DNA from: a bacterium
GTDB lineage: Bacteria; Actinomycetota; Acidimicrobiia; Spongiisociales; Spongiisociaceae
DNA length: 64,000 nt
Assembly (NCBI GenBank): GCA_028821265.1
Contig: JAPPGU010000002.1
Location: 904 to 64,903 of the forward strand
Direction of reading: 5' to 3'
The notes under the pieces: model-generated
The model's input: only the letters and a program-made list of their open reading frames with translations
Told to the model about the DNA's origin: nothing
Databases searched by the model: none
In this document: positions 13,426-62,066 of the stretch, piece by piece
How positions within the stretch are numbered: position 1 is the first letter of the stretch
How the letters are laid out: each line of letters opens with the position of its first letter
Made by a program: the position numbers and the translations under genes

Positions 13426-13568
13426 GGTATGCCCGATCTCGGGCATGACTGACCCGACCGCCATGATCGGGAGCCGGTCGAGATACCGGTAATAAGACGT
13501 ATCGGCGTGTGGCGAGCGAAGAGTGGGGGCTCCCGGCGGTGCCCTGGACTCTCATCGAAAGGAGTGCG

Positions 13569-16500
13569 ATGATGGCGGGACGGGGAGATGGACTTCGGAT
13601 GCAGCGCCTGTTCACGACCGAAGGCCGCGACCCGTACGAGGGAATCGCCTGGACCCGCCGCGAGTCACGGATCGTCAATCCGGACGGCTCCGTGGTCTTC
13701 GAGATGGATGACGCCGAGGTTCCCACCACCTGGTCGCAGGTGGCCACCGACATCATCGTCTCGAAGTACTTCCGCAAGGCCGGTGTGCCCCGGATGGACG
13801 CTGATGGCGACCCGATGCTGGATTCCGACGGCAATCCGGTGCTGGGGTCGGAGCGCTCTGCCAGGGATGTCTTCAACCGGCTTGCCGAGACCTGGCGGCA
13901 CTGGGGTGAGGGTTACGGCTACTTCGGCAGCGCCGCCGAAGCCCAGACCTTCGAGGACGAGATCAAGTACATGCTCGCCAACCAGATGGCGGCTCCCAAC
14001 AGCCCGCAGTGGTTCAACACCGGCTTGTCGCATAAGTACGGCATCACGGGTACGCCGCAAGGGTTCTGGTACGTAGACGAGGAGACCGGCGAGGTACTCC
14101 CCTCCCCCGACGCCTACTCCAGGCCGGCTCCCCATGCCTGCTTCATCCAGTCGGTGGCCGACGACCTCGTCAACGAGGGCGGGATCATGGACCTGTGGGT
14201 CCGGGAAGCCCGTCTCTTCAAGATGGGATCCGGCACCGGCTCCAACTTCTCCAACCTCCGGGCCGAGGGCGAGCCGCTGGCGGGCGGAGGGAAGAGCTCG
14301 GGGCTCATGTCGTTCCTCAAGATCGGAGACCGGGCGGCGGGTGCGATCAAGTCCGGCGGCACCACCCGGCGGGCCGCCAAGATGGTCATCCTCGACACCG
14401 ATCACCCCGACATCGAGGAGTTCATCGCCTGGAAGCGCGACGAGGAAATGAAAGCCCGCCTCCTGATCGAGCACGGCGGGTTCCAGGCCGACTTCAACGG
14501 TGAGGCCTACATGACCGTGTCGGGCCAGAACTCCAACAACTCGGTACGGGTTGACGACCGCTTCATCAAGGCCGTCGCCGACGATGGGGATTGGGAACTG
14601 GTCAACCGGGTGGAGGGTGACGTCAGCAAGACGGTACGCGCCAGAGACCTGTGGGAGCAGATCGCGGACGCCGCCTGGGCCTGTGCCGATCCGGGCGTCC
14701 AGTACCACACCTCCATCAACGAGTGGCACACGTGCCCGGCGGACGGTGAGATCCGGGCGTCCAACCCCTGTTCGGAATACATGTTCCTGGACGACACGGC
14801 TTGCAACCTGGCCAGCATCAACCTCGGCGCCTTCCTCGATGACGCAACCGGCCGGTTCGACACCGCCGGTTACCTCCACGCCATCCGGCTGTGGACGATC
14901 GTCCTGGAGATCTCGGTGACGATGGCGCACTTCCCGTCCAAGGCCATCGCCCAGGGCTCCTATGACTTCCGCACCCTCGGCCTCGGTTACGCCAACCTCG
15001 GCAGCCTCCTGATGCGCTCGGGGATCCCCTACGACTCGGACGAGGGCCGGGCGATCGCCGGCGCGCTGACCGCCATCCTCACCGGTGAGGCCTACGCCAC
15101 CTCCGCCGACATGGCCAAGATGCGGGGCCCCTTCCCCGGGTTCGAGAAGAACCGCGCACACATGTTGCGGGTGATGCGGAACCACCGTCGGGCCGCCTAC
15201 GACGAGAGGGGCTTCGAGGGTGTCGGCACCACGGTCAGCACCATCGACCCGGCATACTGCCCTGCCGAGCTGCTGGACGCGGCCCGGCAGGCCTGGGACC
15301 GTGCCCTGGAGATGGGAGAACAGCACGGTTACCGCAACGCTCAGGCAAGCGTGCTCGCTCCGACCGGATGCCTGGTCGGTGGATCCCTCATCCCGACCGA
15401 GCGAGGACTGGTCCGGCTCCGGTCGCTCGGCGACCCCGAAGGCCCGAGGTGGCAGGAACTGGGCATCTCGGTAGCAACTGACGAGGGACCCCGCACCGCG
15501 ACCCGTTTCTACGTCAACGGGGCAGAACCCGTGGTGACCGTGGACACGGAGCGCGGATACCGCGTCCAGGGAACTCCCACCCACCGCATCAAAGTCGTCG
15601 ACCCGCAGACCGGTGACTGGGTATGGAAACGCTTCGGAGACGTGGAGGCCGGCGATCTCGTACCCCTGCAGATGAACCAGTTGGTCGGAGGTCCCCGCCG
15701 GGTGACCCTCCCGCCCTTGGGAGAGATGTACTGGACCGGTGACTGGACCACCACGGCGCCGAGGACCATGAGCCCGGAACTGGCCGAGTTCGTCGGGTAC
15801 TTCATGGGGGACGGTTCCCTCCACGCCAAAGGTCTGAGGTTGTGCGTCACGGCTGAAGACTTCGACGTGGTGGAACGTCTTCGAATGCTCGGGAAGCGGC
15901 TCTTCAACCTAGAAGCCCACGTCGGCGAAAGGGTCGGCTACGCCGAGGTCGCGTTCCACTCTGTCCCGCTGACCATGTGGTGGGAAGCCTGCGGATTCGC
16001 CAAGATCGCGCCCTCCGAAGGCCATGCCGGCAAGGGCTGGCTGCCTCACATCCCGGACGCGGTACTCGCTTCCAACTGCCCGGAAACCTATCGCGCCTTC
16101 ATCAGGGGCCTGTTCGAAGCCGATGGAACCGTCACGGCAGGCTATCCGCATTGGTCCACGACCTCGATGGACTTCAGCCGCGATGTCCAGTCGCTGCTGC
16201 TGGCGATCGGTTACCCGACAACCCGCAAGATGGATCGGACCGGTTGGAGTGATGCTCCCCTCGCCGTGCTGCGCATCCTCAACCTCTCCTACGCCACCGG
16301 GTTTGCCGAAGAGATCGGTTTCATGAGCGGCCGCAAGCAAGGTGCCCTGGCCTCGACCACCATCCCGCAGTCGGCCCGCTGTGACCACATTCCGGTGCCC
16401 CGCTCCCTCATCGACCGGCTCGTGCCCGAGAACGGCCGCTTGCGGCGCATCATGCTGGCATCGCAGGCCAGGATCGGCATGGTGTCACGCCGATCGGCCC

Positions 16501-18269
16501 TGGAACTCCTCGAACGCACCGATGACCGTGAACTGGCCCGGCTGCTCGACCACTACTACGACCGGGTCGGCAGCGCGGAACTGGGCGAGGAGCAGTGGAC
16601 CTACGACCTGTCCGTCCCCGACAACGTCACCTACGTGGCCAACGGCTTCGTGTCGCACAACACCATCGGGTTGGTGATGGATTGCGACACCACCGGGGTG
16701 GAGCCCGACTTCGCCCTGGTCAAGTTCAAGAAGCTGGCCGGCGGGGGCTACTTCAAGATCGCCAACCAGTCCATCGCCCCGTCGCTGCGGCGGCTCGGCT
16801 ATGACAAGCACCAGATCCTCGACATCCTGGCCTACGTGGTAGGCACCTCATCGCTCGAGAACGCTCCGCACATCAACCACCGGAGCCTGGCGGCGAAGGG
16901 CTTCACGGCCGAGGACCTGGCCAGGATCGGGAAGGCCCTTCCCGGCGCATTCGAACTGGAGAACGCCTTCAACGCCTTCACGCTGGGCGCCGACACCTTG
17001 GAACGGCTCGGCTTCACCGAGGAGGAGTACGGAACCTTCGAGTTCAGGCTGCTGCCGGCGCTCGGCTTCAGCAGGGAACAGATACGTGCCGCCAACGACT
17101 TCATCTGCGGCCGCCAGACCATCGAGGGAGCACCGCACCTGCGTGCCGAACACCTGGCGGTGTTCGACTGCGCCAACCGCAACGGCAAGTACGGAGAGCG
17201 GTTCATCCACCACACGGGCCACATCAAGATGATGGCCGCCGCCCAGCCGTTCATCTCGGGGGCCATCTCCAAGACGATCAACATGCCCAACGAGGTCACC
17301 GTCGAGGATGTGGCGGATGCCTACATGATGTCCTGGGATTTGGGCGTCAAGGCAGTGGCCCTCTACCGCGACGGCTCCAAGGCCTCGCAGCCGCTGTCCG
17401 CCTCCTCGGACGACGGGGTGTCGGAGGAGGAGAGCGAGGAAGTCACCGAAGCGCTGCAGGCCGAGGCCGCCCTGGCGTGGGGAGTCTGGCCCAACGGCAC
17501 CTCACCCACCCAGGCCTACGCCCAGCAACCACGTCCCCGCTTCCTGCTACCGGCCCGCCGGACGGGGTGGACCCAGGAGGCTCGGGTCGGTGGCCACAAG
17601 GTGTTCCTCCGCACCGGGGAGTACGACGACGGAACGCTCGGTGAGATATTCATCGACCTGGCGAAGGAGGGCGCCACGCTCCGGGGTGTGCTGGCCAGCT
17701 TTGCCATAGCGGTTAGCAAGGGCCTCCAGTACGGCGTGCCGCTGGAGGAGTACGTGGACACGTTCGTGTACCAGACCTTCGAGCCCCGCGGCATCGTGGA
17801 GAAGCATCCCAACATCAAGATGGCCAATTCGATCGTGGACTACGTGTTCCGGGCGCTCGGGGTCGAGTACCTGCTTCGGGACGAGCTCGCCCAGGTCCCC
17901 CCGGACCGGTCGAGCAGCGACCTGCCCGAGCCCCCGAAGGGAATCGCCACCGAGGCCGGCCGCCAGATGGAGCTGTCGGAGGCGGTCAAGGAACAGGACA
18001 TCGAGGCGCAGGCCACCGCCGCGGCGTTCGCGGACTCCGATCAGCCCGGCCCCGTCCAGCAGCCGCTCAGCTTGGTGCCGGTGGGTACCGGCAACGGATC
18101 GGGCGTGGCAGTCGGGCTGGCTGACGAAACCGCCCTCGCGAGTGCGGGCCCGATGATCGGAGGCCTGATGGGAGACGCCCCGATGTGCTCCTCATGCGGC
18201 CACATGACCATCCGTAACGGCGCCTGCTACGTCTGCCTGACCTGCGGAGACACCACCGGCTGCAGTTAG
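13569..18269 (+). CDS. nrdJ: class II (adenosylcobalamin-dependent) ribonucleotide reductase NrdJ, interrupted by an intein
   Basis: Family motifs are present ([59 protein letters not shown]) plus a C-terminal CxxC...CxxC tail. An RBS GAAAGGAG precedes the ATG ATG at 13569. Confidence 0.9.
   Translation: [1566 protein letters not shown]
15369..16661 (+). mobile_element. 431-aa intein with a LAGLIDADG homing-endonuclease domain
   Basis: It begins CLVGGSLIP directly after extein APTG. It has block B GTPTHRI and two LAGLIDADG motifs ([26 protein letters not shown]). It ends VSHN followed by extein Thr (TIGLVMDCD). Confidence 0.85.
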
Positions 18270-30416: not shown

Positions 30417-31820
30417 ATGAACGAGACAAGCCGAGATTGCGACCTCCTCCTGACGGGAGGGTCGGTGGTGACCGTGGACGACGAGCGCCGGGTGATCGAG
30501 CCCGGGTCGGTGGCGGTGTCGGGCAATCGGATCGTGGCGGTAGGCCCGGACGAGGACCTGGCCGGGTACCGGGCGGGACGTACCATCGATTGCTCCGGGC
30601 ATGCCGTCCTGCCGGGGTTGATCGACACCCACGACCACCTGTTCCAGGGTCTGGCCCGCGGGCTGGGCGAGGGGATGCCGCTGTGGACCTGGCTGACCGA
30701 CTTCATGTGGCCGTTCTCGATCTCCATCAACCTGGAGGAGGGCCGGATTGGAGCCAAGCTGGGAGCGGTGGAAGCCCTCAAGGCCGGTACCACCACGGTG
30801 ATCGACAACCACTACGCGCCGTCCGATCTCGACACCACCCTGGCCGTGGCCGGCGCCATCCACGAGGTGGGGCTGCGGGGGGCCGTGGCCCGCGGCATCG
30901 TAGGCGAGGCGACCGACATAGCCCGCCGATTCAACCTGGCGGGCGAGCTGTTCTCCTACTCCAATGACGAGGAGATCGAGATCACCACCGCCGCGATGGA
31001 GCAGTACCCGGCCGGTGAGCGGGTGCAGGTCTGGCCGGCTCCCCTCAACATCATCTACAACGACCAGGACCTGGTACGGCGGAGCGTGGCCCTGGCTCGA
31101 GAGGCCGGAGTCGGCTGGCATACGCACTGCTCGGAACGCCTGGAGGACCCACCCACCTACCTGGAGGAATACGGTATCCGCCCGGTCGAGTGGCTCTACC
31201 AGGAGGGCCTGCTCGGACCGGAGGCGACCATCGCCCACGGGATCTACCTCGACGACGCCGAGATCGACCATGTGGGCGAGACCGGCACGGGCATCGCCTA
31301 CTGTCCGATCTCCCACCAGTACATCGCCCTCGGGGTGATGCGGCTCAGGGACCTGCGAGCCTCAGGCGCGCCGATCGGTCTCGGCACCGACGGTCCGTGC
31401 TGCAACCATCGCCAGGACATGTTCGAGGTGATGAAGCAGGCCATCCTCCTCCAGCGGGTCCACACCCTGGAGCCGACCATCAGCAACGGGGAGGAGGCCC
31501 TGGAGATGGCCACGAGGGAGGGTGCCCGTTACGCCAACATCGAGGCGGGTGAGCTGGCACCCGGAAAGCTGGCAGACATCATCGTCGTGAACATGAAGAG
31601 CCCCCACCTGACCCCCTGGCACCGGACCGTCTCCGCCATCACCTACTGCGTCCGGGGATCGGACGTGGTCCATTCCATCATCGACGGCAACCTGGCGCTC
31701 GAGAACGGGCGCTGCACCATGGTCGACGAGGAAGAGGTCATGCGCGAGGCGCAGGCGCGCGCCGAGGACCTGATCGACCGCGCCGGGCTACACGGGCTGC
31801 TAACGCCCTGGAGGCGATAG
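30417..31820 (+). CDS. amidohydrolase_1 family deaminase/chlorohydrolase-like enzyme
   Basis: It has LPGLIDTHDHLFQG (HxH) and later HCSE, GTDG and similar motifs. The length (467 aa) fits the SsnA/MtaD/AtzA-like subgroup. Confidence 0.8.
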   Translation: MNETSRDCDLLLTGGSVVTVDDERRVIEPGSVAVSGNRIVAVGPDEDLAGYRAGRTIDCSGHAVLPGLIDTHDHLFQGLARGLGEGMPLWTWLTDFMWPFSISINLEEGRIGAKLGAVEALKAGTTTVIDNHYAPSDLDTTLAVAGAIHEVGLRGAVARGIVGEATDIARRFNLAGELFSYSNDEEIEITTAAMEQYPAGERVQVWPAPLNIIYNDQDLVRRSVALAREAGVGWHTHCSERLEDPPTYLEEYGIRPVEWLYQEGLLGPEATIAHGIYLDDAEIDHVGETGTGIAYCPISHQYIALGVMRLRDLRASGAPIGLGTDGPCCNHRQDMFEVMKQAILLQRVHTLEPTISNGEEALEMATREGARYANIEAGELAPGKLADIIVVNMKSPHLTPWHRTVSAITYCVRGSDVVHSIIDGNLALENGRCTMVDEEEVMREAQARAEDLIDRAGLHGLLTPWRR

Positions 31821-31886: not shown

Positions 31887-32339
31887 TCAATCCCTGTAGA
31901 CAGCGACCCACTTGATTATCTCTTCCACGTCGGCGGAAAGCTCCATCAAACCTACGTGCTCATCGTAGAGATCGCCGTCCATCTGCTCCTTGATCTCCGG
32001 CTCCAATACGTGATATACGGGAAGTCCCAACGGGACTCCGGCCAACGGACCCGCCCAGGTCGGATCGCCTCTGGTCACCGTCTCCGCGAAGAGACCGGCG
32101 CTGTTGGCATCCGGCTGCCCCAGCAGGACGACCATGCCGTCCGTGCCGGAGGTCTCGGCCAGGCGATTTACGTTCGCCTGGTCCTCCAGGTCCATCGCTC
32201 CCCCAGCCGTTCAGACGAAGCACTGGGTGACGCTGAACACCACATCGGCGCCGGCCGACTCGGCCAGGAGCTTGAGGCTGGGCCCGGTGACGCCGTCGCG
32301 CTCACCGATGGCCACCACCCTCCTGCCGTTCAGATCCAT
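31887..32339 (-). CDS. grdA: glycine/sarcosine/betaine reductase complex selenoprotein A, with in-frame UGA (Sec43)
   Basis: The minus-strand frame reads, after GAGGAG, an ATG at 32339 and then MDLNGRRVVAIGERDGVTGPSLKLLAESAGADVVFSVTQCFV-TGA(32213..32211)-TAGGAMDLEDQ... to the stop at 31887. The CFVU motif and both halves match GrdA. The track lists only the part after the UGA. Confidence 0.85.
32159..32181 (-). promoter_or_regulatory. candidate SECIS-type hairpin downstream of the grdA UGA
   Basis: On the mRNA, CCAGGCGA-ACGUAAA-UCGCCUGG forms a perfect 8-bp stem at +30 to +52 after the UGA. An alternative is CCUGG-AGGA-CCAGG at +21 to +34. Confidence 0.35.
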
Positions 32340-32496
32340 ACCCGCTCCTCTCGCTTCTTTCATTACGTCGGACTTCGGCCGCCGGGGGTCACGCTTTCGT
32401 TGACGACGTGATGGCGGGCCGTCGAGAGTCTATCGCCCGGCCTATCCACCACAGGAATGGCAGATTCGTGGCCGGCTCGGCTGACCTACAGCCTTG

Positions 32497-34014
32497 CTAC
32501 CCCGTGCGGCGCGCCACGGCCGGCCGCTCGACGATGAAGGAAACCCCGTCGACCAACTGTGTCATCCTGCCCAGGAACAGGCTCCCCTTGGCGACGATCA
32601 TGGCTCGGTCGAGGCTGCCGCGGCGCATGGCTTCCAGGGCGTGTCCCAGGTAGGGAACCCCGGCCGGGATGTGTCCCTGGGTCGGAGCGAACCCGGGCAT
32701 GCCGCGCTCGGCCACGAAGCGGTCGATGTCTCCCCTCCCGATCTCTCGCCGTAGCACCGCCATCGCCGCCAGCGTCCGGTAGTTCATTCTGGGCACGTCG
32801 CCGCTCCCGCCGGGCTCGGTGATCTCCGGATTGTGCATCTCCACCGCGTACTTGTCGATGTCGGTCATGCCGAGACCGGCCCTCACGAGCGGTTCCACCA
32901 CCAGCGCCTCGTACACCGCCTTCGGAGAGGAACCGGCCCCGATCGGATGCTTCCCGGCGAGGTCGAGCCGCAGCTCCATGCCGTGGCCGCCGGCGGGACC
33001 GACCAGGAATGCCATGGAAGCCAGGCAGTCCTCCATCACCGGCACCCCGTTGCGCAGGTGAGCGCCGAACTTCATGCCTAGCTTGGCCTGCGATCCGCCG
33101 CCCAACACGACCACGTACTTGTGAACACCCGCCGCCACCATCGCGCCGGCCGCGATCAGCGCGTGCACCGGCGCGGAGCAGAACGCCTTGATGTCCGATC
33201 CGGTGGCGTTCACGCAGCCGACCACCTCGCCGACCGCTTTCGACAGGCTGCCCCCGCCCCGCTGGTATCGGTCCCCGACCGCTTCCTCCCCACAGTTGAG
33301 CAGGTAGTCGATCTCACCTGCCCCGATGCCGCTGTTCCTGAGAAGATCGGAGAACGCCAGGACTGCGGTCGCCTTGCCGGCCAGGTTCTCGAGCAGCACA
33401 GAGGCGGTGAGCGCCTCGTCCTGGTCGTGAACAGTGCGGATGAACCCGGCCATGCGCCCGTCGTGGTGGAGGTCGAGTCCGGCACTCTCCTCCGCCAGAG
33501 TCCGCAACTCGGCCGGGTCGACACCCGTAATCCGCCCCCTCCGATGATCGAAGTCGACCAGATCGAAGCCGGCCTGCTCGGCCAGTTCCCCATCGATGGC
33601 CAGCAGGTCGAAGTCGTCGCACAGCTTCATGAGCCCGTACAGGGCAGGCTGGCTGACCATGCGCCCGAAGGCGCCGGAGGGACTTGCCGAGTCGATCCTG
33701 TTCTCGTACCAGGGACGGGGGATGGACGCCAGGTCCTCCGGTGCGAGATTCCCGATGAACACCTGGTTCGGCGGGTAGGCGACCACTTCGTCCCAGGGGC
33801 GAAGGGATCCGGCAATCCGGGGCAGCAGTGACGGGTCCCTGCCGATCTCACGTACCGGCTTCGACCCGTACCTGACCAGATCGGGAGCGTGAGAAAGGGC
33901 GTAGGAAGCGCTGAGGATGGCGGGTGTCGGGCTCAACGGAATGGTCTCCAGGTTGGCTGCTCGGCGATTGCTCGGCCGAAGCAGGGTAACCGTAGCCTGA
34001 CCGAGCCCGGCCAT
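32497..34014 (-). CDS. grdC: glycine/sarcosine/betaine reductase component C beta-subunit-like protein (thiolase-fold)
   Basis: The motifs ASYALSHAPDLV, YPPNQVFIGNL...PRPWYENR, GDRYQRGGGSLSKAVGEVVGCVNATGSDIKAFCSAPVHAL and PGFAPTQGHIPAGVPYLGHA...GSLFLGRMT resemble GrdC as I recall it. A TTG at 33936, preceded by GGAG, is an alternative start. Confidence 0.6.
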   Translation of the reverse strand: MAGLGQATVTLLRPSNRRAANLETIPLSPTPAILSASYALSHAPDLVRYGSKPVREIGRDPSLLPRIAGSLRPWDEVVAYPPNQVFIGNLAPEDLASIPRPWYENRIDSASPSGAFGRMVSQPALYGLMKLCDDFDLLAIDGELAEQAGFDLVDFDHRRGRITGVDPAELRTLAEESAGLDLHHDGRMAGFIRTVHDQDEALTASVLLENLAGKATAVLAFSDLLRNSGIGAGEIDYLLNCGEEAVGDRYQRGGGSLSKAVGEVVGCVNATGSDIKAFCSAPVHALIAAGAMVAAGVHKYVVVLGGGSQAKLGMKFGAHLRNGVPVMEDCLASMAFLVGPAGGHGMELRLDLAGKHPIGAGSSPKAVYEALVVEPLVRAGLGMTDIDKYAVEMHNPEITEPGGSGDVPRMNYRTLAAMAVLRREIGRGDIDRFVAERGMPGFAPTQGHIPAGVPYLGHALEAMRRGSLDRAMIVAKGSLFLGRMTQLVDGVSFIVERPAVARRTG

Positions 34015-34030: not shown

Positions 34031-35053
34031 GTGGGTATTCTCTCCTCGCCCTGGACAGGAGCGTTCCAGGCCCGTTCACCATGGAGAAGACCCCCCTTGG
34101 CCCGCCGTTACCCGACCACAGCGCTGAGCGGAGAGGGTCTTGGTATCCCGTTCCTGGCCATGGCCACCAGCATCCTCATCATGAGCACCGGCCTGGTGGC
34201 GATCAAGGCAACCAGCCTCGGCGGGCTCGAGTTCTCCTTCTGGCGTCTATGGATCGGCGTGGCGGCGCTGGGCCCCGTGGTCATCTGGAGGCTCGCCGCC
34301 AAGCCCGAGGCGCGCCCGTCGCTCTCCTCGCTGCGCCGGGCCATCCTGCCGGGTCTCCTGATCGCGTTCATCCAGCCGGCCCTGGTCGTCGCAGCCAAGC
34401 TCACCTCGGTCACGGATGTAGCGCTGCTGACCTCGGTGATCCCCCTGATCGTAAGCGTGATCGCCGTTCCGATCCTGGGCGAACGCCCCGGCGCCCGCTT
34501 CCGGCTGTGGGTGGTGGTGGCGATCAGCGGCGCCGGCTTGGTGGCCTACGGAGGATCCACCGGCCTCGAGGGCGACCTGCTCGGGATGGCCCTGGCATGT
34601 GCCGGAGTGGTGTGCTGGGCGTTCTACATGGTCATCCTGAAGATCTCCAGGGTCTACCTGGATGCCATCGTGCTGCTCTGGGCCATCTTGGTGGTCGCAG
34701 CGATCGGCGTGACCGGGTTCATGGCGCTCACCGGCTGGGAGCCGGGCTCGGTGACCACCGGGGACTGGCTGCTGATCACCTACGTAGCGGTGATACCCGG
34801 AGGGGTCGGTCTGGCGCTGATGACCTGGGCCTACCGCTGGCTGCCCGCCAACATCCCACCCCTCATGCAAAGTGCCAAACCGGTCCTGTCCAGCGCCCAG
34901 GCCTACGCGCTCCTGTCCGAGCCCGTTACCGCTCTGCACTTCGTGGGCGGCGGCATCGCAATCGCCGGAGTGGTTGGAGCGATCCTGGATCGAACCGGCC
35001 GGCGCCTTCTGGCCGAAGCGCAGAGCAAGGCCGACCCCAGCCAGATCTCATGA
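34031..35053 (+). CDS. EamA/DMT-family transporter
   Basis: About 10 hydrophobic helices in two EamA-like halves. The start is uncertain (GTG 34031 or ATG 34160). Confidence 0.8.
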   Translation: MGILSSPWTGAFQARSPWRRPPLARRYPTTALSGEGLGIPFLAMATSILIMSTGLVAIKATSLGGLEFSFWRLWIGVAALGPVVIWRLAAKPEARPSLSSLRRAILPGLLIAFIQPALVVAAKLTSVTDVALLTSVIPLIVSVIAVPILGERPGARFRLWVVVAISGAGLVAYGGSTGLEGDLLGMALACAGVVCWAFYMVILKISRVYLDAIVLLWAILVVAAIGVTGFMALTGWEPGSVTTGDWLLITYVAVIPGGVGLALMTWAYRWLPANIPPLMQSAKPVLSSAQAYALLSEPVTALHFVGGGIAIAGVVGAILDRTGRRLLAEAQSKADPSQIS

Positions 35054-38977: not shown

Positions 38978-39044
38978 TCACTCCCTTCCCGGTAGCGTCG
39001 GGCGGCATTGTATATGATCCGAATCGGCGCGAAGGAGGTGACCA

Positions 39045-39437
39045 CTGGGGATCGAAGCCGTCGAAGTAGAGGCCTTGAGCGATCCTCCTGAGCCCTATTC
39101 CCACGCCATCCGGGCCGGTAACACCATCTACCTGGCCGGTCAGGTGGCCTTCGACCGGGACGGCGAGATCGTGGGGGACACCGTGGAACAGCAGGCCAGG
39201 CAGGTGTGGCGGAACATCGAGGACGTGCTGGCGGCGGCGGGTAGCTCGGTCGCCGACGTGGTCAAGGTCACCTACATCATGCAGGACATCCGGGAGATTT
39301 CCGAGGAGTTCCCCGTCCGTGAGGAGGTGTTCGCCGGGAGGCCGTTTCCGGCGGTGACCGCGATGCAGGCGGCGGCACTGGGACTGCCCGGCCTCAAGAT
39401 GGAGGTGGATGTGATCGCGGTGGTGCCAGGTGGCTGA
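39045..39437 (+). CDS. ridA: RidA/YjgF family deaminase
   Basis: PEPYSHAIRAGNTIYLAGQVA... and a C-terminal EVDVIAV. GAAGGAGG precedes a CTG at 39045, and the track start is a TTG at 39075. The start is uncertain. Confidence 0.8.
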   Translation: MGIEAVEVEALSDPPEPYSHAIRAGNTIYLAGQVAFDRDGEIVGDTVEQQARQVWRNIEDVLAAAGSSVADVVKVTYIMQDIREISEEFPVREEVFAGRPFPAVTAMQAAALGLPGLKMEVDVIAVVPGG

Positions 39438-39627
39438 CCCGATCCCCGAGGCCGTTTCCGAAGCCCTATCCCGGCACGGCTTGACCGGACCGGCGTTCGA
39501 CGCGGTGGCGATCGCCGAGGCGCTGGCCGGTTGGGACGAAGCAGGAGGGATCCTGGACCGGCTGCTGTCAAGGCACGAGGCGGACGCCCCCGCTGCCAAC
39601 CCGACCTCCTTCTCCCCGAAGTGGTGA
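39430..39627 (+). CDS. 65-aa acidic helical protein, candidate GatC/AtzG-like amidase partner
   Basis: Its GTG overlaps the ridA stop (GTGGCTGA), and its stop overlaps the amidase GTG start (GTGGTGA). The C-terminal EADAPAANPTSF recalls the DUF4089/AtzG-like tail. Confidence 0.4.
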   Translation: MADPIPEAVSEALSRHGLTGPAFDAVAIAEALAGWDEAGGILDRLLSRHEADAPAANPTSFSPKW

Positions 39628-41036
39628 CGGGACCCGTGAGCGCCCGCTCCATAGCAAGCATCGCCCGCCAACTCCGTGAGGGCGCCACCACTTCCGTGGC
39701 GGTCACCCGGCGCGCGCTCGATGGCATCGATCAGACCGACACCCGGCTCAACGCCTTCGCTCTCGTGGACCGGGAGGGAGCGATGCGAGCTGCCGAGCAG
39801 GCCGACCGGGTCCTGGACTCGGGAGAGGGGGCCGGGCCGCTGACCGGAGTCCCGGTCGCCATCAAGGACATCATCCACATGACGGGCCTTCCCACCCGAT
39901 GCGGATCGCCCGCCTATCCCGACACGCCCCGCGACCACGACGCAGCCGTCGTCGGCAGGCTGCGCGAGGCGGGCGCGGTGATGGTCGGCAAGACGACCAC
40001 CCATGAGTTGGCCTGCGGCGTCTCCAGCCCTCCGGCCGCCAATCCATGGGACACTGCCCGCCTGCCGGGCGGGTCCAGCGGTGGATCCGGCGCGGCCGTG
40101 GCCGCCGGAGTGGTGCCGATGGCGCTCGGGAGCGACACGGGCGGATCGATCAGGATTCCCGCGTCGGTCTGCGGGATCGCCGGCCTCAAGCCGACCTTCG
40201 GGAGGGTGTCCCGCGCCGGAGTCGAGACCCTGGCCTGGTCCCTGGACCACATCGGACCGCTGGCCGCCACCGTGGAGGACTGCGCCGCCACGCTCCAGAT
40301 CCTGGCGGGCCACGATCCGGCCGATCCTCCGACCGAGCCCACTCCCCCACCCGACTACTCCGCGGAGCTGGGCCGTGGGGTGGACGGGCTGCGGCTCGGC
40401 ATCATGGCGACGCCGCCCTTCTCCCCGATGCAGGAAGACGTGGAGCGGGCGTTCCGCGATGCGGTCGAGCACCTGGAAGGGCTCGGGGCCGACGTGGTTC
40501 CCGTCGACATCCCGGAACTGGTCTTCACCCTTGACACCGAGTTCTCCATCGTCGGACCCGAGGCCGCCGCCTACCACCGTCGGCTGCTCCGGGAGTCGCC
40601 GGAATTGATCTCTCCGGACATCCGCGAGCTGTTCACCATCGGCACGATCCTGCCGTCGACCCACTACCTCAGGGGCCTCGGCGCCCGCCGGGTCATCCGT
40701 GAAGCCCTGCGGCGGGCGTTCGACCGGGACCGGCTGGACGCAGCGATAACCCCCACCCTGCCCGCTACGGCCGCCCTTGCAGACCAGGAGATGATCGACT
40801 ACGGGGAGATGGAGGAGGGCGTGATCACTTCCTACGTGCGTACGACCGCCCCCTTCAACCTGAGCGGCCAGCCTGCGCTCACCGTCCCGTGCGGGTTCGA
40901 TCGGGACGGCCTACCGATCGGCCTCCAGATCGCCGGGCGTCCTTTCGATGAGGTCACGGTCCTCCGGATCGGCGCCGCCTACGAGGCGACCACGACCTGG
41001 TCGGACCACCGGCCGCCGGTCCGGGTAGACGGCTAG
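39621..41036 (+). CDS. amidase-signature family amidase (GatA/AtzE-like)
   Basis: GGSSGGSGAAVAAG and GSDTGGSIRIPA signature sequences, with a Ser-cisSer-Lys context. Confidence 0.85.
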   Translation: MVTGPVSARSIASIARQLREGATTSVAVTRRALDGIDQTDTRLNAFALVDREGAMRAAEQADRVLDSGEGAGPLTGVPVAIKDIIHMTGLPTRCGSPAYPDTPRDHDAAVVGRLREAGAVMVGKTTTHELACGVSSPPAANPWDTARLPGGSSGGSGAAVAAGVVPMALGSDTGGSIRIPASVCGIAGLKPTFGRVSRAGVETLAWSLDHIGPLAATVEDCAATLQILAGHDPADPPTEPTPPPDYSAELGRGVDGLRLGIMATPPFSPMQEDVERAFRDAVEHLEGLGADVVPVDIPELVFTLDTEFSIVGPEAAAYHRRLLRESPELISPDIRELFTIGTILPSTHYLRGLGARRVIREALRRAFDRDRLDAAITPTLPATAALADQEMIDYGEMEEGVITSYVRTTAPFNLSGQPALTVPCGFDRDGLPIGLQIAGRPFDEVTVLRIGAAYEATTTWSDHRPPVRVDG

Positions 41037-53909: not shown

Positions 53910-54383
53910 ATGCACCGCCTCTCCGCTTACGGGATAGGACTGGACGTGCCGACCGGCTGGGAGGCCGAACTGTCCTTGCAGGACGACGCCGAGAAGATCG
54001 AGATCGACACTGCACCACCCGGCCACGGCCTGGTCGTCCTGCATGCGGCCAACTTCTGGCTGCCGAACGAGCGTGACGACTACGGCTCGGAGGCGCTGGA
54101 GGCCATGGGTCCGGCGGGCGTCTTCATCGCGCTCGTGGAGTTCGATCGCGTCTCGGTCGGGTCCCTGCTGTTCGAGCACCACGGCATCCCGGCCGATCTG
54201 CAACCCGACGACTTCGATCCCAACGCACTCCGGCGGCCCATGCGAGAACAGGCCGGCCTCCAACGATTCTTCCACTCGGCCGGTCGGGCCTTCTGCCTCC
54301 ACGCCGCCATCGGCTCCCACAACAACCGAAGAACGCTGGCCCGCGACGTGAACAGCATCCTCTCAAACCTCACCATCGAATAG
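53910..54383 (+). CDS. hypothetical protein
   Basis: 157-aa ORF starting 5 nt after the preceding gene. No motif recognised. Confidence 0.45.
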   Translation: MHRLSAYGIGLDVPTGWEAELSLQDDAEKIEIDTAPPGHGLVVLHAANFWLPNERDDYGSEALEAMGPAGVFIALVEFDRVSVGSLLFEHHGIPADLQPDDFDPNALRRPMREQAGLQRFFHSAGRAFCLHAAIGSHNNRRTLARDVNSILSNLTIE

Positions 54384-54431
54384 GGACAAAGGCACGTTCC
54401 CACACCGCTCACAGCGGCCGATTTCCACACT

Positions 54432-55028
54432 CTATGAGATGGCCATGTCTCCTTCGGTTCCGGTGACGGTCCAGCCGTCCTCTGCTTTCGTTACCCGATA
54501 GGTGAGCCAGATCCCGCATGTGCCGCCACACCACAAGTTGACCCCGACCGTCGCGCCGGCGCCATCGAACTCGACCGGTGCCAGCGTGACGATCGCGCTT
54601 CCGGGGATGACTGGCATCAGGACCTCCTGTTGGATGAAGTCGCTCCGATTGCTGACAAACGTCACCGGCGAGAGGTCCTCAATGGCCGCCGCGATTGCGC
54701 TGCGCTGCTCGTCGGTGAGAGCGTCACCAGGCGAGCCTTCCGTCATGTAGTCCGCGGCGTCGAACACCACACGGTCTAGGACAAGAACTTCGGTGAACCG
54801 GTAGTCGGGCCCGAACGTGTTGTCGAACTCTACGATCTGCCGTGTCACCGTCGCGTAGATGGCCACCGATGCCTTAGCGCGCTCTTCTTCGGAATATGAG
54901 CCGTCTCCGCAGGCAACTGTGCTCACGACCATCAGCACGCCCATAGCGAGGCCGAGGGATCGCAAGTTTGTGCGCGCCGCACGGCGCCCTTGCGCGTTCG
55001 TCGATTCGCCCCTGCCAGCCCGGAACAT
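54432..55028 (-). CDS. hypothetical lipoprotein
   Basis: Signal peptide with lipobox VSTVAC. No recognisable domain. Confidence 0.55.
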   Translation of the reverse strand: MFRAGRGESTNAQGRRAARTNLRSLGLAMGVLMVVSTVACGDGSYSEEERAKASVAIYATVTRQIVEFDNTFGPDYRFTEVLVLDRVVFDAADYMTEGSPGDALTDEQRSAIAAAIEDLSPVTFVSNRSDFIQQEVLMPVIPGSAIVTLAPVEFDGAGATVGVNLWCGGTCGIWLTYRVTKAEDGWTVTGTEGDMAIS

Positions 55029-55366
55029 GATCTACCTCCCAACGCCCCTCACTGTGTGAGCGCCGTTCACCGCTGTTCGCAACAGCTCGTTCCCTTTAGA
55101 CGCCGGATCGACCGGGTTTGGTTCCACCCCCTGAGCCAATCGTTCGCGGCGGGGCCCAACGGTCATGGTCGCCGCCTAAACGTCTGGTAAGCAGGGCTAT
55201 TCACCGGAACTGGACGGCTGGACGAATACGGTGGTGATCTTCACGAGCGACACGGCGACACGCTGAGCGTCGCATCCGGCCCATTTGCGGATCTTCCCGA
55301 TGAGATCGGACAGCCTGAGGCGCCTCACCGTCGGCTAGTTTGGACGATCGTCAGCGGGGGTTCTGG

Positions 55367-57385
55367 ATGAGCGACGAGACGATTAACAACCACGAGGCGT
55401 TTGTCTGGTCGGTGGCCGACCTGTTGCGGGGTGTGTACAAACAGTCGGAGTACGGGCGGGTGATCCTTCCGCTCACGGTGCTCCGTCGGCTGGATTGCGT
55501 GCTGGAACCCACCAAGGACAAGGTGCTGGAGCGGGCGGCCAAGCTTCCGACTGACCTGGAGAACCGGGCGCCGATACTGATGCACGCGGCTGGGGAGTCG
55601 TTCTACAACACGTCGAAGCACACGTTCAAGACGTTGCTGGCCGATCCCGACAACGTGGCCCCGAACCTGCGCAACTACATCGCCGGGTTCTCCGAGTCGG
55701 CCCGGGACATCATCGACAAGTTCAACTTCGACACCCAGATCGACCGGTTGGACCAGCACAACCTGCTGTACCTGGTGGTGTCCCGCTTCGCCGACCTCGA
55801 TATGCGCCCGGAGGTGGTGTCGAACCTGGAGATGGGTTACATCTACGAGGAGTTGATCCGCCGCTTCTCGGAGTTGTCCAACGAGACGGCGGGTGAGCAC
55901 TTCACCCCCCGCGAGGTGATCCGCCTCATGGTGAACCTGCTCCTCGCGGACGATGACCAGTTGCTGACGGCACCGGGGATCGTCAAGACCATGCTGGACC
56001 CGGCCTGCGGCACGGGCGGAATGCTGTCCGTGTCGGAGGAGTACCTGCGCAATCTCAACCCCCAGGGCCGCCTTCACGTCTACGGCCAGGAGGTGAACGC
56101 TGAGACCTATGCCACGTGCCGGTCGGACATGCTGATCAAGGGCCTGGACGCGTCGCGGATCCGGTTCGGGAACAGCTTTGACAACGACCAACACCCCAGC
56201 CGCCGCTTCGACTACCTGCTGGCCAATCCCCCGTTCGGTGTGGAGTGGAAGATGGTCGCCAACCACATCAGAGGCGAGCACAAGACGAAGGGCTTCGCGG
56301 GTCGGTTCGGCGCCGGCCTGCCACGGATCAACGACGGCAGCTTCCTGTTCCTCCAGCACATGATCTCCAAGATGAAACGCCCCGAAGAAGGCGGCGCCCG
56401 CCTGGCGATCGTGTTCAACGGCTCCCCACTCTTCACGGGAGCGGCCGGGTCGGGCGAGTCCGAGATCCGGCGGTGGATCATCGAGAACGACTGGCTCGAA
56501 GCCGTGGTCGCCCTCCCCGACCAGCTGTTCTACAACACCGGGATCTCCACCTACTTCTGGGTAGTCACCAACCGCAAGTCCCCCAAGCGCCGCGGCAAGG
56601 TCCAGTTGATCGACGCCCGCGAGTCTTGGACCAAGATGCGCAAGAGCCTCGGCAACAAACGCAAGCAGATCAGCGACGACCAGATTGACGAGCTCACCCG
56701 TCTCTACGGCGCCTTCGAGGAAGGCCCCCGCTCCAAGATCTTCCCCAACGAGAGCTTCGGCTTTCTCCGGATCACCGTCGAACGCCCCCTCCGCCTCCGC
56801 TGGGAGATCACCCAAGACACCCTCGCCGCCGTCGCCGCCGACAAGAAAGTCACCAAACTCCTGTCCACGAGGAAGGACCTTCTGCTGGAGAAGCTCCGAC
56901 CCACTCACGGCGCCACCTACCCGACCGAAAAGGATGCGAAGGCAGCCGTCCGCGACGCGCTCGTGTCAGTCATCGGAGAGAAACCCACTCCCGTGGTCAA
57001 CGCCATCGCCACCGCACTCGCGGTGCGAGACCCTCAGGCGCCGGTCATCACCGACCGCAAGGGCAACCCCAAACCCGACCCCACCCTCCGCGACTACGAA
57101 AACGTCCCCCTACCCACCAAACGCGTCACCCACGAAACCGACACCACCAGACGGCTCAACACCACCGAGTACCAGACCGCCATCAACGACTACCTCGAAA
57201 CCGACGTCCACCCCTACGTCCCCGACGCCTGGCACGACCCCACCAAGACCAAGATCGGCTACGAAATCCCCCTCACCCGCCACTTCTACACCTACACCCC
57301 GCCCCGCCCCCTCCAAGACATCGACAAGGAAATCAAGACCCTCGAATCCGAGATCCAAGCCCTCCTCGCCGAGGTGACGAATTGA
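55367..57385 (+). CDS. hsdM: type I restriction-modification system methyltransferase subunit
   Basis: HsdM N-terminal pattern (FVWSVADLLRG...YGRVILPLTVLRRLD), SAM motif DPACGTGGML, and catalytic LLANPPFGVEW. Confidence 0.9.
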   Translation: MSDETINNHEAFVWSVADLLRGVYKQSEYGRVILPLTVLRRLDCVLEPTKDKVLERAAKLPTDLENRAPILMHAAGESFYNTSKHTFKTLLADPDNVAPNLRNYIAGFSESARDIIDKFNFDTQIDRLDQHNLLYLVVSRFADLDMRPEVVSNLEMGYIYEELIRRFSELSNETAGEHFTPREVIRLMVNLLLADDDQLLTAPGIVKTMLDPACGTGGMLSVSEEYLRNLNPQGRLHVYGQEVNAETYATCRSDMLIKGLDASRIRFGNSFDNDQHPSRRFDYLLANPPFGVEWKMVANHIRGEHKTKGFAGRFGAGLPRINDGSFLFLQHMISKMKRPEEGGARLAIVFNGSPLFTGAAGSGESEIRRWIIENDWLEAVVALPDQLFYNTGISTYFWVVTNRKSPKRRGKVQLIDARESWTKMRKSLGNKRKQISDDQIDELTRLYGAFEEGPRSKIFPNESFGFLRITVERPLRLRWEITQDTLAAVAADKKVTKLLSTRKDLLLEKLRPTHGATYPTEKDAKAAVRDALVSVIGEKPTPVVNAIATALAVRDPQAPVITDRKGNPKPDPTLRDYENVPLPTKRVTHETDTTRRLNTTEYQTAINDYLETDVHPYVPDAWHDPTKTKIGYEIPLTRHFYTYTPPRPLQDIDKEIKTLESEIQALLAEVTN

Positions 57386-58662
57386 AGGGCAGCCCGCTCA
57401 AATACTTGTTGGATCTGAACGATTCAGGGACATGGGGGAATGATCCGACCGGTGAGGGTGACACGGTCGTGCTGCGGTCGACTGACATCCGTCTGGACGG
57501 TAGCTGGCGCATCTCTGACCCCGCTGTCCGACACGTCAATAGACATGACAAGGTGAGGAAACGCTTGGCCTTTGGCGACATCGTTGTCGTCAAGTCAAGC
57601 GGTAGTCCTGAGCACCTGGGAAAGTCAGCGATCGTTACCAAGGAAGTAGCGGCTATGCGTCCCTGCTTCGCAAACTTTGTACAGCGCCTACGGCCGTCCC
57701 CGTCTACGGACAGTCGGTATATCTGGTACGTCCTGAACTCAAAATGGGCTGCCGACGAAATGGCAAGTTTGGGTAATACGACAACGGGCCTGCGGAACCT
57801 CAATGGCACGATCATAGGATCACTTAGGATCCCGGCAAGAGGCATCCATGAGCAGCGGGCGATCGCTGACTACCTCGACATCGAAACCAACCGCATCGAC
57901 ACCCTCATCGCCAAGAAACGCCGCATGATCCAACTCCTCGGTGAATACGACCGACGAACGCTCGATGATCTACTCGATGGCATCCGCCAGAACGGATTAG
58001 CACGCCTCGGGTATCTGGCCGAGGTTCGATCCGGGCTAACCCTTGGAGGAGCGAGGGCCAACTCCCGATCGCATGTGACCCTTCCTTACCTTCGTGTGGC
58101 AAACGTGCAACACGACCGGCTCGATCTCTCCGAGGTCAAGTCCGTGACTGTGGATACCACGACTGCCCGGCGAACGGCGCTTCGCCACGGCGATGTGCTC
58201 ATGACTGAAGGCGGAGACATCGACAAACTGGGACGGGGTACCGTGTGGCGAGGTGAGATCGACCCGTGCCTCCACCAGAATCATGTATTCGCGGTACGCG
58301 TACGAACGAAGAACCTACTACCTGAGTTCCTTGCCCTGCTGACAAGAACATCATATGCACGCCAATATTTCGAGAGGACCGGCGTACGTTCGACAAACCT
58401 CGCCTCTACAAGCTCTTCAAAGGTTGCCGACTTCCGAATCCCGCTTCCCAGTCGAAGCACTCAGTCACATCTGGTCTCAGTGTATCAACGCAAATGGGAG
58501 ACACTGGAACGGACACGGGTGGCGACGGGATTACAGGTAGATCTGCTCAACGAGCGTCGGCAGGCGCTGATCACGACCGCTGTCACTGGCGAGTCGCCTG
58601 TACCGGGCATGGCGGCGTGGCAGCGCTGCCTCGCTGAAGGACATGCACCCGAGGAGGGATGA
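57382..58662 (+). CDS. hsdS: type I restriction-modification system specificity subunit
   Basis: Two target-recognition halves are separated by conserved helical spacers (QRAIADYLDIETNRIDTLIAKKRRMIQLL; TGLQVDLLNERRQALITTAVTG). Its TTG start overlaps the hsdM stop. It is visibly less GC-rich. Confidence 0.85.
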   Translation: MKGSPLKYLLDLNDSGTWGNDPTGEGDTVVLRSTDIRLDGSWRISDPAVRHVNRHDKVRKRLAFGDIVVVKSSGSPEHLGKSAIVTKEVAAMRPCFANFVQRLRPSPSTDSRYIWYVLNSKWAADEMASLGNTTTGLRNLNGTIIGSLRIPARGIHEQRAIADYLDIETNRIDTLIAKKRRMIQLLGEYDRRTLDDLLDGIRQNGLARLGYLAEVRSGLTLGGARANSRSHVTLPYLRVANVQHDRLDLSEVKSVTVDTTTARRTALRHGDVLMTEGGDIDKLGRGTVWRGEIDPCLHQNHVFAVRVRTKNLLPEFLALLTRTSYARQYFERTGVRSTNLASTSSSKVADFRIPLPSRSTQSHLVSVYQRKWETLERTRVATGLQVDLLNERRQALITTAVTGESPVPGMAAWQRCLAEGHAPEEG

Positions 58663-58967
58663 TGGCCCGCCCGACGATCTACGGGTTGCGAGACAGACGG
58701 CTCAACACGATGAGCGCCGAGGAGCGAGGCAAGTTCCACGAGGCCCTCGCCGCGGCTCGCCTTGCTCTGGAGGTAGGGCAGAAGATCCGCGACGCGCGAG
58801 AGGCCGCCGAGCTGACCCAGCGCGACCTTGCCACACTCATGTCGACAAGTCAGGCCGCGGTCGCCCGCCTCGAGGCCGGCGGCACGAGCCCCACGCTCAC
58901 GACCCTCAACAAAGCCGCTGCTGCGCTCAACATGACGCTGACCGTCAACCTGGCTCGGGCGCTCTGA
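58659..58967 (+). CDS. XRE-family helix-turn-helix protein
   Basis: HTH LTQRDLATLMSTSQAAVARLEAG. The ATG overlaps the hsdS stop (ATGA), with GAGGAGGG immediately upstream. Confidence 0.75.
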   Translation: MMARPTIYGLRDRRLNTMSAEERGKFHEALAAARLALEVGQKIRDAREAAELTQRDLATLMSTSQAAVARLEAGGTSPTLTTLNKAAAALNMTLTVNLARAL

Positions 58968-59135
58968 CTCCAGCCCGACCCGACGGCCCTCTCAACTCAT
59001 GGACGCCGCATGACGAGCCTCGCCAACTGTTCGATCGCGCAGAGTTGGTGGAGCGGTCAAGCGGCCAGCCCTAGACCCGTCACGGCAAAAGCGCCGCCTG
59101 GAAGACGACACGCGAGCGCCCACGCCAGGCACCGG

Positions 59136-59330
59136 TTAGTTGAGTACGGCGATCAGGATGCCCAGTACGGTGCCGACCACTCCGAGACCGCCCAGGATCA
59201 TCCCAACCGCCCAATGCGTGCGCCGCTGCGCATCGTCCAGGATGGTGAGCAAGGCTCGGGCTATGGCGGTGTCGGTCTCGGCCTTGGCCTGGTCGAAACG
59301 GGCGTCGATGAGCGACTCGGTGCTCACCAT
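59136..59330 (-). CDS. candidate 64-aa tail-anchored membrane protein
   Basis: The ATG at 59330 is preceded by AAGGA. A helical N-terminus is followed by WAVGMILGGLGVVGTVLGILIAVLN. Confidence 0.4.
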   Translation of the reverse strand: MVSTESLIDARFDQAKAETDTAIARALLTILDDAQRRTHWAVGMILGGLGVVGTVLGILIAVLN

Positions 59331-59504
59331 CGGGTTCCTTACGGGTGGCTGACAATCCAGTATACCTAGCACTATCTAGATATGACAACCCTCAACAATC
59401 TAATGTTCATGAGCGTGATGGCTGGTACGGTCGGCGATGGTCCCCTGCGCCCACAGAGCCTAGGGATCTGCTTTCGGGCCGGTTCCCCGCGTATCAAGAA
59501 AAGA

Positions 59505-59596
59505 GAACACTGCTACGCTGTAGTGCTGAACACTGCTGTGCTACTACTCCGATAACTGCTGTGCTATCGGCCTGAACACTGCTACGCTGTGGCTAG
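59505..59596. repeat. four tandem 23-bp direct repeats (iteron-like) ending on the start codon of the ATPase gene
   Basis: The units start at 59505, 59528, 59551 and 59574. The core is GAACACTGCT(A/G)(C/T)GCT, and the first and fourth units are identical over 17 nt. Confidence 0.8.
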
Positions 59597-60849: not shown

Positions 60850-61078
60850 CTGGATGGTTCCTAGCCGACAATCACAGTTACGTGTCGAGACGTTCGCCCG
60901 ATGGGAGATTGTGGATGAGCCAGGCTTCCACCTCGTCCACGAATCCGGAGGTCGTTCACGGGTCAACCTCACCCTCTAACTAGGCGAACAGAGACACGCA
61001 CCGGTTTTCGGGCCAGACCAGGGGAAGTGCATGTACCCTTTGGACGAGTGCAGAAGAATTCACACAAGGAGACGTCCC

Positions 61079-61921: not shown

Positions 61922-62066
61922 TCCTCTAGGCCGAGCCGTTCAGCAACACCTCGTTCAGCTCGTCGCCGCACACCTCCCGTGCCGTGGCGGCCACCACCGC
62001 GGTTCGTGTCACCTGCTCCTCGTAAGATGCCTCGGTCATGAGGTCCTGGGAAATGGTGACTGACGG

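Follow-up and report, generated by a model that had tools for sequence, protein, structure and literature searches.

The grdC-grdA locus

The stretch of DNA considered here, hereafter the window, comprises 64,000 nucleotides of contig JAPPGU010000002.1 (positions 904 to 64,903; assembly GCA_028821265.1) from a bacterium of the Spongiisociaceae, within the Acidimicrobiia of the Actinomycetota, and the genes in question are two minus-strand neighbors, grdC and grdA, whose products belong to the glycine, sarcosine, and betaine reductase systems. These reductases are textbook selenoenzymes whose workings are known almost wholly from a few clostridia. A sequence-only reading of the window had singled out the pair as standing without a substrate-specific B component, GrdD, or thioredoxin system nearby. 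On the layout that it described, with grdC a short distance upstream of grdA and the two flanked by a convergent amidohydrolase gene and a divergent EamA-family transporter gene, coordinates and Pfam assignments agree (Table 1).

Table 1. Features of the grdC-grdA locus and its immediate flanks, in window coordinates.
Feature	Position	Strand	Remarks
Amidohydro_1 gene, context	30417-31820	plus	convergent with grdA; Pfam Amidohydro_1
grdA, selenoprotein A	31887-32339	minus	150 aa + stop; translation, Pfam and NCBIfam profiles
SECIS-like (selenocysteine insertion sequence-like) hairpin	32150-32213	minus	directly 3' of UGA; apical stem CCUGG/CCAGG, loop AGGA
grdC-grdA spacer	32340-32496	minus	157 nt
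grdC, component C beta subunit of GrdD-less clade	32497-34014	minus	505 aa from ATG 34014
EamA-family transporter gene, context	34031-35053	plus	divergent from grdC; Pfam EamA

The product of grdA covers the whole of Pfam GRDA (PF04723, positions 1-147 of 147) at 197.1 bits, where the cutoff is 22, and scores 199.9 bits against NCBIfam NF040748 (cutoff 130). An in-frame TGA at 32211-32213 falls inside the motif QCFV-U-TAGGAMDLE of the translation, and from this UGA residue 44 is predicted to be selenocysteine (Sec) within a C-x-x-U redox motif, C41-x-x-U44. The hairpin that follows the codon is conserved in sequence among relatives, and the RNA fold of 32150-32216 (67 nt) has an energy of -31.5 kcal/mol (z = -4.09), a stability reached by none of 200 shuffled sequences. 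Likewise, the TGA codon is retained in 87 of 88 GrdA matches across the fetched loci. An Rfam scan of the grdC-grdA locus, hairpin included, matched no family, no tRNA gene, tRNA-Sec included, was found in the 64-kb window, and a PDB sequence search with GrdA and GrdC returned no solved relatives.

The upstream gene encodes a protein that scores 589.6 bits against NF040746 ([quoted passage not shown]; cutoff 450). It also matches Pfam DUF5940, over positions 1-134 of 166 only, canonical GrdC covering positions 2-164. Homologues measure 470-482 aa and begin M-x-x-P-A-I-L; TTG 33936, which is preceded by GGAG and would give 479 aa, is a likelier start than ATG 34014. The AlphaFold2 model (mean predicted local distance difference test score, pLDDT, 84.1; predicted template modeling score, pTM, 0.88) has a thiolase-superfamily/KAS-III fold, and the closest PDB folds found for it with Foldseek are SpoVAD, FabH/KAS III, and HMG-CoA synthase (E = 1e-10 to 1e-8). 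Cys279 (505-aa numbering), in K-A-F-C-S-A-P, aligns with the FabH nucleophile Cys112, and a cysteine stands at this position of the alignment in canonical GrdC and in the clade described below. No exact match to the window GrdC is on record. Profile and fold thus place the 505-aa protein in the GrdC family, as had been proposed from the sequence alone, though the branch to which it belongs is a non-canonical one.

When every six-frame open reading frame (ORF) of at least 40 aa in the window was searched by phmmer with canonical and Acidimicrobiia GrdB, GrdE, GrdD, TrxB, and thioredoxin (Trx) sequences, grdC and grdA alone were matched. Hidden Markov models of GrdB (61 sequences) and GrdE (51 sequences) similarly returned nothing from the 64 kb, even at E ≤ 100, and the reported lack of these partners near the pair therefore extends to the whole window. 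The same applies to the statement that there is no second UGA-interrupted GrdB-like frame: the sole other in-frame TGA candidate, a putative selenoprotein frame at 39042-41036 with coding-like third-position GC on both sides of the TGA, consists of two separate genes, one of the RidA family and one for an amidase.

Conservation of the pair

A genome scan recovered a locus with a 98% identical GrdC from the metagenome-assembled genome (MAG) CO36387bin_10 (Acidimicrobiia), together with further relatives at 77-91% identity that include "Candidatus Spongiisociaceae" MAGs and bins with isolate names that point to sponge metagenomes. Acidimicrobiia MAGs are the source of the closest GrdC sequences, and the window accordingly comes from a sponge-associated member of this class. 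On three long contigs (L001, L002, and L003 among the fetched loci) the grdC-grdA pair is kept with no B, D, or Trx gene within 10 kb, while synteny with the window around the pair is complete in the first, partial in the second, and absent in the third, whose surroundings are unrelated. Purifying selection acts strongly on both genes. Against relatives with synonymous divergence (dS) from 0.08 to about 1.3, the ratio of nonsynonymous to synonymous divergence (dN/dS) is 0.13-0.16 for grdC and 0.05-0.12 for grdA, and the ratios are equal in genomes that have the pair only and in those with linked B genes, so that there is no relaxation in the former.

In some relatives the spacer is occupied. 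A retropepsin-like ORF of 138-141 aa, with weak matches to PF13975/PF13650, lies between grdC and grdA in L002 (11697-12113) and L003 (11571-11996) and at the same position in L006, where the window has its short spacer only.

A clade of GrdC without GrdD

Relatives of the window GrdC were scanned for with the peptides EEAVGDRY and [QL]AK[LM]GMKF, canonical GrdC having EEACGDMN there, and they number at least 513 among GTDB species genomes, in Acidimicrobiia, Chloroflexota, Desulfobacterota, and others. Four canonical loci served as controls, from Enterococcus gilvus pCR1A (L085, annotated), Enterococcus raffinosus, Acetoanaerobium noterae (L086), and Photobacterium sp. DA100 (L091), and all four are ordered trxB-trx-grdA-grdC-grdD. 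GrdD is a PlsX-family protein (PF02504), and Escherichia coli PlsX was tried as its probe; being too insensitive (E = 0.013 on a true GrdD), it was replaced by the annotated E. gilvus GrdD, which gave E = 1.5e-118 on the Acetoanaerobium control and detected GrdD in four of four controls. This probe had no match at E ≤ 10 in clade loci L001-L083 or the window, and none at E ≤ 1e-5 in L089, a locus of the sibling genome described below; within 10 kb, grdD was found at 0 of 84 clade loci. In metagenome contigs scanned with a GrdD alignment, by comparison, grdC lies directly upstream of grdD at all 57 loci with sufficient upstream DNA, 52 of them by a strict rule and five, apparent exceptions at first, adjacent on inspection.

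The absence of grdD is accompanied by differences in gene order and in GrdC itself. Canonical loci run A→C→D, and 73 of 82 clade loci, the window's relatives included, run C→A. Past the motif S-F-I-V-E-R canonical GrdC continues for another 34-37 residues as a C-terminal tail, where the clade median is 5, which agrees with the truncated DUF5940 match of the window protein. In a neighbor-joining tree the four GrdCs of canonical type group together as a clan, and the branch between them and the 81 clade members has a length of 0.238. A Trx gene adjoins grdC at 16 clade loci and a TrxB gene at only three, all in Bacillota. The window GrdC belongs to this clade, which is defined by a separate grouping, grdA directly downstream, no grdD, and a short C-terminus. 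Since grdD is absent from all 84 loci and trxB present at three, the lack of GrdD and thioredoxin reductase is a property of the clade and not peculiar to the window, and its earlier framing was mistaken. No description of an orphan grdC-grdA pair or of the GrdD-less type was found in the literature that could be searched.

Some members of the clade depart from its usual layout. Two are Bacillales, an Ammoniphilus MAG (L075) and an Alkalihalobacillus sp. (L080), both of aerobic genera; the former has the order grdE-grdB-grdA-trxB-grdC-trx, in a neighborhood with genes for a sigma-54 activator and an OpuAC betaine-binding protein, and the short contig of the latter carries trxB-grdC-trx. In five Dehalococcoidia loci (L060, L062, L069, L070, and L074) an ORF with RTX repeats precedes grdC, in four of them a GrdB-like ORF of about 175 aa follows grdA on the opposite strand, and in L074 grdC stands without a detectable grdA.

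The B component

The commonest arrangement in the clade is grdE-grdB-grdC-grdA, and a full-length GrdB or GrdE is encoded at 56 of 82 loci, mostly directly upstream of the pair. The window is nonetheless not alone in its lack of B genes. Among 47 loci flanked by at least 8 kb on each side, 15 have no full-length B gene, and these include six Acidimicrobiia relatives of the window, one locus each from Tectomicrobia, Binatia, and Deltaproteobacteria, and five from Dehalococcoidia, four of which have a short GrdB-like ORF only. Within the Acidimicrobiia, GrdB comes in three types with 40-46% mutual identity and with different positions relative to grdC: type 1 is encoded directly upstream (L012-L018, L046, and L057), type 2 is encoded 3-5 kb downstream (L008 and L010), and type 3 is divergent from grdC (L009). 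The GrdB sequences of L008, L009, L010, and L014 also differ from the canonical motif U-G-T-C-T-R-C, reading U-G-T-G-T-R-C or, in type 3, U-G-T-G-T-R-S, such that the first Cys of UxxCxxC is replaced by Gly.

One complete genome is that of a sibling whose GrdC is 78% identical to the window's (ERZ21861969 ctg21620c), a circular molecule of 4,140,741 bp. It has one grdC-grdA pair, at 0.90 Mb, beside a type-3 grdE-grdB-BKACE set (L089, 0.89-0.92 Mb), and a type-2 grdE-grdB set at 2.72 Mb (L087, 2.71-2.73 Mb) with no grdC or grdA nearby. Given that there is a single C-A pair and that the second B set lies 1.8 Mb away from it, one A/C pair appears to serve dispersed B sets. The neighbors of the two sets differ. 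The type-2 set lies inside an Opp-type peptide ABC transporter operon that has an extra GrdE paralogue, with a Peptidase_M24 (creatinase/prolidase family) gene upstream, and the type-3 set adjoins the BKACE (beta-keto-acid cleavage enzyme) gene and two Amidohydro_2 genes, which hints at different substrates for each set.

For the pair-only genomes, distant B genes were sought by pairing matches to type-1 and type-2 GrdB in a protein collection with matches to GrdC through the length of the longest contig. Genomes with linked B genes share contig values in the GrdB and GrdC lists (for example, 105,628, 90,392, 98,648, and 4,140,741 bp).

Interpretation and alternatives

We favor, with somewhat more belief than doubt, the explanation that the pair is a functional operon of two genes and the shared A/C module, for acceptance and processing, of a GrdD-less reductase of the glycine/sarcosine/betaine type, that its B genes lie elsewhere in the genome, and that GrdC is itself the subunit that bears the acetyl group and lets it go. 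Most likely, the C-A module of the window lineage has come to lie apart from the substrate-specific B genes. There is a published precedent for a common A/C system that is fed by several B complexes (PMC10838667, citing Andreesen 2004). In the proposed sequence of events, a selenoprotein complex of GrdB/GrdE type, encoded elsewhere in the genome, would cleave the C-N bond of the substrate and pass the carboxymethyl group to Sec44 of GrdA. Cys279 of GrdC would then act in the manner of a thiolase and take up the two-carbon unit as an acetyl thioester, GrdA departing as a Cys41-Sec44 selenenyl sulfide to be re-reduced, presumably, by the housekeeping thioredoxin system. Finally, GrdC itself might hand the acetyl group on to phosphate, CoA, or water, with GrdD not involved.

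Of the two origins that the sequence-only reading had proposed for the missing partners, encoding elsewhere in the genome is the better supported for the B component, by virtue of the distant B set of the sibling genome, and we infer the same for the window organism itself. The other, an undescribed loading enzyme from the surrounding catabolic island, found no recognizable candidate.

A number of points weigh against the favored explanation. No B gene of the PF07355 and PF09338 types was found in the 64-kb window, nor any B gene within 10 kb of the pair in L001-L007 and L011. In the paired lists, no orthologue of GrdB types 1 and 2, the two commonest in Acidimicrobiia, was matched to the pair-only contigs of 3,444,975, 4,390,481, 2,835,419, 1,498,485, and 393,660 bp, or to others; the type-1 list reached down to 59% identity and the type-2 list stood at 69% or above, the search covering two of the three GrdB types, and the 2,835,419-bp contig is the weaker check, given that its protein could hide in a 90% cluster with a larger longest contig. 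The pairing itself relies on 90% cluster representatives and top-120 lists. As to the clade as a whole, the loci analyzed are the best 80 of at least 513 genomes, and the metagenomic GrdD loci are biased towards Bacillota. The independence from GrdD faces a further objection. In the one system studied biochemically, Cys359 of GrdD reportedly carries the acetyl thioester, a result of Kohlstock et al. in 2001, and a GrdD-free protein C is accordingly not known to have an experimental precedent.

Several of these points would also suit an account in which pair-only Acidimicrobiia have no B component, GrdA is loaded by an unrelated enzyme, such as the TRZ/ATZ-like amidohydrolase or the product of another island gene, or else an activated two-carbon electrophile alkylates its Sec without any enzyme between them, and GrdC processes the adduct. 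We regard this account as unlikely, if worth weighing. The absence of B genes from the 64 kb and from 10 kb on either side of the pair in eight close relatives is what it would lead one to expect, as is their absence, for types 1 and 2, from pair-only contigs of 2.8-4.4 Mb, and the strong purifying selection on the pair persists there. Further, an orthologue or paralogue of the Amidohydro_1 gene adjoins grd genes at seven related loci (L001, L002, L004, L005, L007, L011, and L057) in three arrangements, and an EamA gene recurs as a neighbor. Each of these has its counterweight. The genome-wide search covered types 1 and 2 of the three GrdB types. Other neighbors change between relatives, L003 and L006 sharing none of the island, and the island resembles a pathway of deoxy-sugar-acid catabolism. 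In L057, moreover, the amidohydrolase paralogue stands next to a complete grdE-grdB-grdC-grdA cluster, for which reason this enzyme is more likely a metabolic neighbor of the pair than a replacement for B. By family the window enzyme belongs with TRZ/ATZ, 5'-deoxyadenosine deaminase, and SsnA-like deaminases, all its NCBIfam matches being below cutoff (the best at 301 bits against 522), and we know of no chemistry by which an amidohydrolase would carboxymethylate a selenol.

In its fullest form, which we consider rather improbable, this account would have the pair-only sponge Acidimicrobiia lack any protein of the GrdB/GrdE family, with either a non-homologous enzyme charging GrdA or the selenol of GrdA being alkylated directly, and with GrdC alone making and releasing the acetyl thioester. 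Were it true, the pair would constitute a two-protein, selenium-dependent system for processing two-carbon units in an aerobic symbiont, independent of the classical Stickland machinery.

A different doubt concerns the last step of the favored scheme. GrdD, or another protein of the PlsX family, might be encoded elsewhere and still be required together with the clade GrdC, as it is in canonical protein C. Four GrdD sequences share the motif G-M-G-C-T-G-P without variation, and in the studied enzyme of Peptoclostridium it is GrdD that bears the catalytic cysteine. We nevertheless consider this quite improbable, in that no grdD was found within 10 kb at any of the 84 clade loci although most of these keep grdE, grdB, grdC, and grdA together, that grdD follows canonical grdC directly in 57 of 57 metagenomic loci and four of four controls, and that the clade GrdC is without the C-terminal tail common to all GrdD-linked GrdCs.

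Least of all can the pair be regarded as a redundant duplicate of a full grd operon elsewhere or as the decaying remnant of one, a very improbable view that draws on the ancestral clade order grdE-grdB-grdC-grdA, on the disappearance of B genes from this lineage's locus, and on their retention beside the pair in L009 and L089, and that is opposed by intact frames, by the kept TGA and hairpin, by a single GrdC cluster per pair-only contig among the top matches, by the lack of a grdC or grdA at the second B locus of the sibling, and is contradicted by the selection data (dN/dS 0.05-0.16 in nine or more genomes, with dS reaching about 1).

Comparison with known systems

The canonical glycine reductases of Peptoclostridium (Eubacterium) acidaminophilum and Acetoanaerobium sticklandii consist of GrdX, TrxB, TrxA, GrdE, GrdA, GrdB, GrdC, and GrdD, and L086 and L091 stand for this kind of system among the controls. 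The window pair shares with them a GrdA of the same family with CxxU and an in-frame UGA, and a GrdC of family NF040746 with the thiolase fold and the cysteine at the FabH position. Unlike them, it has a GrdC only 42-46% identical to the canonical one and shorter by a tail of about 35 residues, its order is C→A and not A→C→D, and the window is without grdD, trxB, trxA, grdE, and grdB. The betaine reductase cluster of E. gilvus pCR1A (trxB-trx-grdA-grdC-grdD-grdI-grdH in the RefSeq annotation) resembles the module proposed here in joining one A/C set to a B pair specific for the substrate, A and C being generic and B conferring specificity, whereas its genes, unlike those of the window lineage, are contiguous and include grdD and a dedicated thioredoxin system.

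Closer in kind are the GrdD-less clusters of the clade (L012-L083), which have in common with the window the GrdC clade, a grdA directly after grdC, the absence of grdD, the short GrdC C-terminus, and Sec in GrdA; most of them differ from the window and its nearest relatives in having grdE-grdB directly upstream. A precedent for unlinked partners is provided by the fluoroacetate reductase FarEB of Cloacibacillus porcorum, a dispersed module of B type that is proposed to feed the GrdA/GrdC of another locus (PMC10838667). C. porcorum has a canonical grdABCDEX set, and for the window pair no B module is known so far.

Neighboring genes

The EamA transporter gene that diverges from grdC has orthologues adjoining grdC in L002, L004, and L011 (81-97% identity); in L003, EamA genes flank the pair on both sides, and in L001 an S9 peptidase gene takes the place of EamA. 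Pfam annotation of 20 genes at 22.9-48.2 kb gave dehydrogenases, an enolase-superfamily dehydratase, amidohydrolases, an FAH-family hydrolase, RidA, an amidase, α/β-hydrolases, and similar proteins. By NCBIfam matches below cutoff, the enolase-superfamily gene is nearest galactonate/gluconate dehydratases and the FAH gene nearest 2,4-didehydro-3-deoxy-L-rhamnonate hydrolase, and the Amidohydro_2 family includes sugar lactonases. With its dehydratase, FAH, Amidohydro_2, short-chain dehydrogenase/reductase (SDR), and alcohol dehydrogenase (ADH) genes, the island resembles a non-phosphorylative route of deoxy-sugar-acid catabolism accompanied by assorted amidases, to judge from these family assignments. 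Its content varies between relatives while the pair is kept, and L003 and L006 have no gene of the window island at all. The Amidohydro_1, Amidohydro_2, MR_MLE, and FAH genes were each considered as partners of GrdA and set aside, since they are better accounted for as deoxy-sugar-acid catabolism or deaminases and are absent from L003 and L006.

At several clade loci (L012-L020, L031, L046, and L067) an aldehyde dehydrogenase gene comes after grdA, mostly followed by genes for ADH, an FGGY kinase, and a DeoC aldolase. L003 and L006 keep the ADH-FGGY-DeoC genes without grdE-grdB and the aldehyde dehydrogenase. At the type-1 loci this aldehyde dehydrogenase was considered as a substitute for GrdD and is more likely part of the ADH-FGGY-DeoC sugar operon.

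Elsewhere in the window, ten large genes include those for a class II ribonucleotide reductase, IMP dehydrogenase, a 2-oxoacid dehydrogenase complex, and a type I restriction system. The ribonucleotide reductase (13467-18269, plus strand; 1600 aa; class II, B12-dependent) is split by an intein with a LAGLIDADG homing-endonuclease domain, as called from Pfam Ribonuc_red_lgC, Ribonuc_red_2_N, Intein_splicing, and LAGLIDADG_3. Over 54000-64000 the GC content falls from about 0.67 to 0.61-0.64, and the type I restriction-modification genes HsdM (55319-57385) and HsdR (62064-63998) lie there; the segment may be mobile or recently acquired.

Implications

In clostridia, GrdD carries the acetyl thioester that gives rise to acetyl phosphate and then to ATP, and the generality of this protein C mechanism is called into question by a widespread GrdC/GrdA lineage that has no GrdD and shows correlated changes in GrdC. 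That lineage, found in at least 513 species-level genomes, mostly from uncultured Chloroflexota, Desulfobacterota, and Acidimicrobiia, sponge symbionts included, has done away with GrdD, has a shortened GrdC and the A and C genes in reversed order, and is apparently undescribed. The orphan pair of the window is a recurrent and modular arrangement and, in itself, only moderately surprising, and it is the cleanest natural case in which to ask for the minimal partner needs of GrdA and GrdC. If the branch does work without GrdD, the last mechanistic step of these reductases and the conservation of energy that depends on it come into question. Likewise, the way in which "grd" genes are read in metagenome models of betaine, sarcosine, and creatine turnover and of trimethylamine production would be affected.

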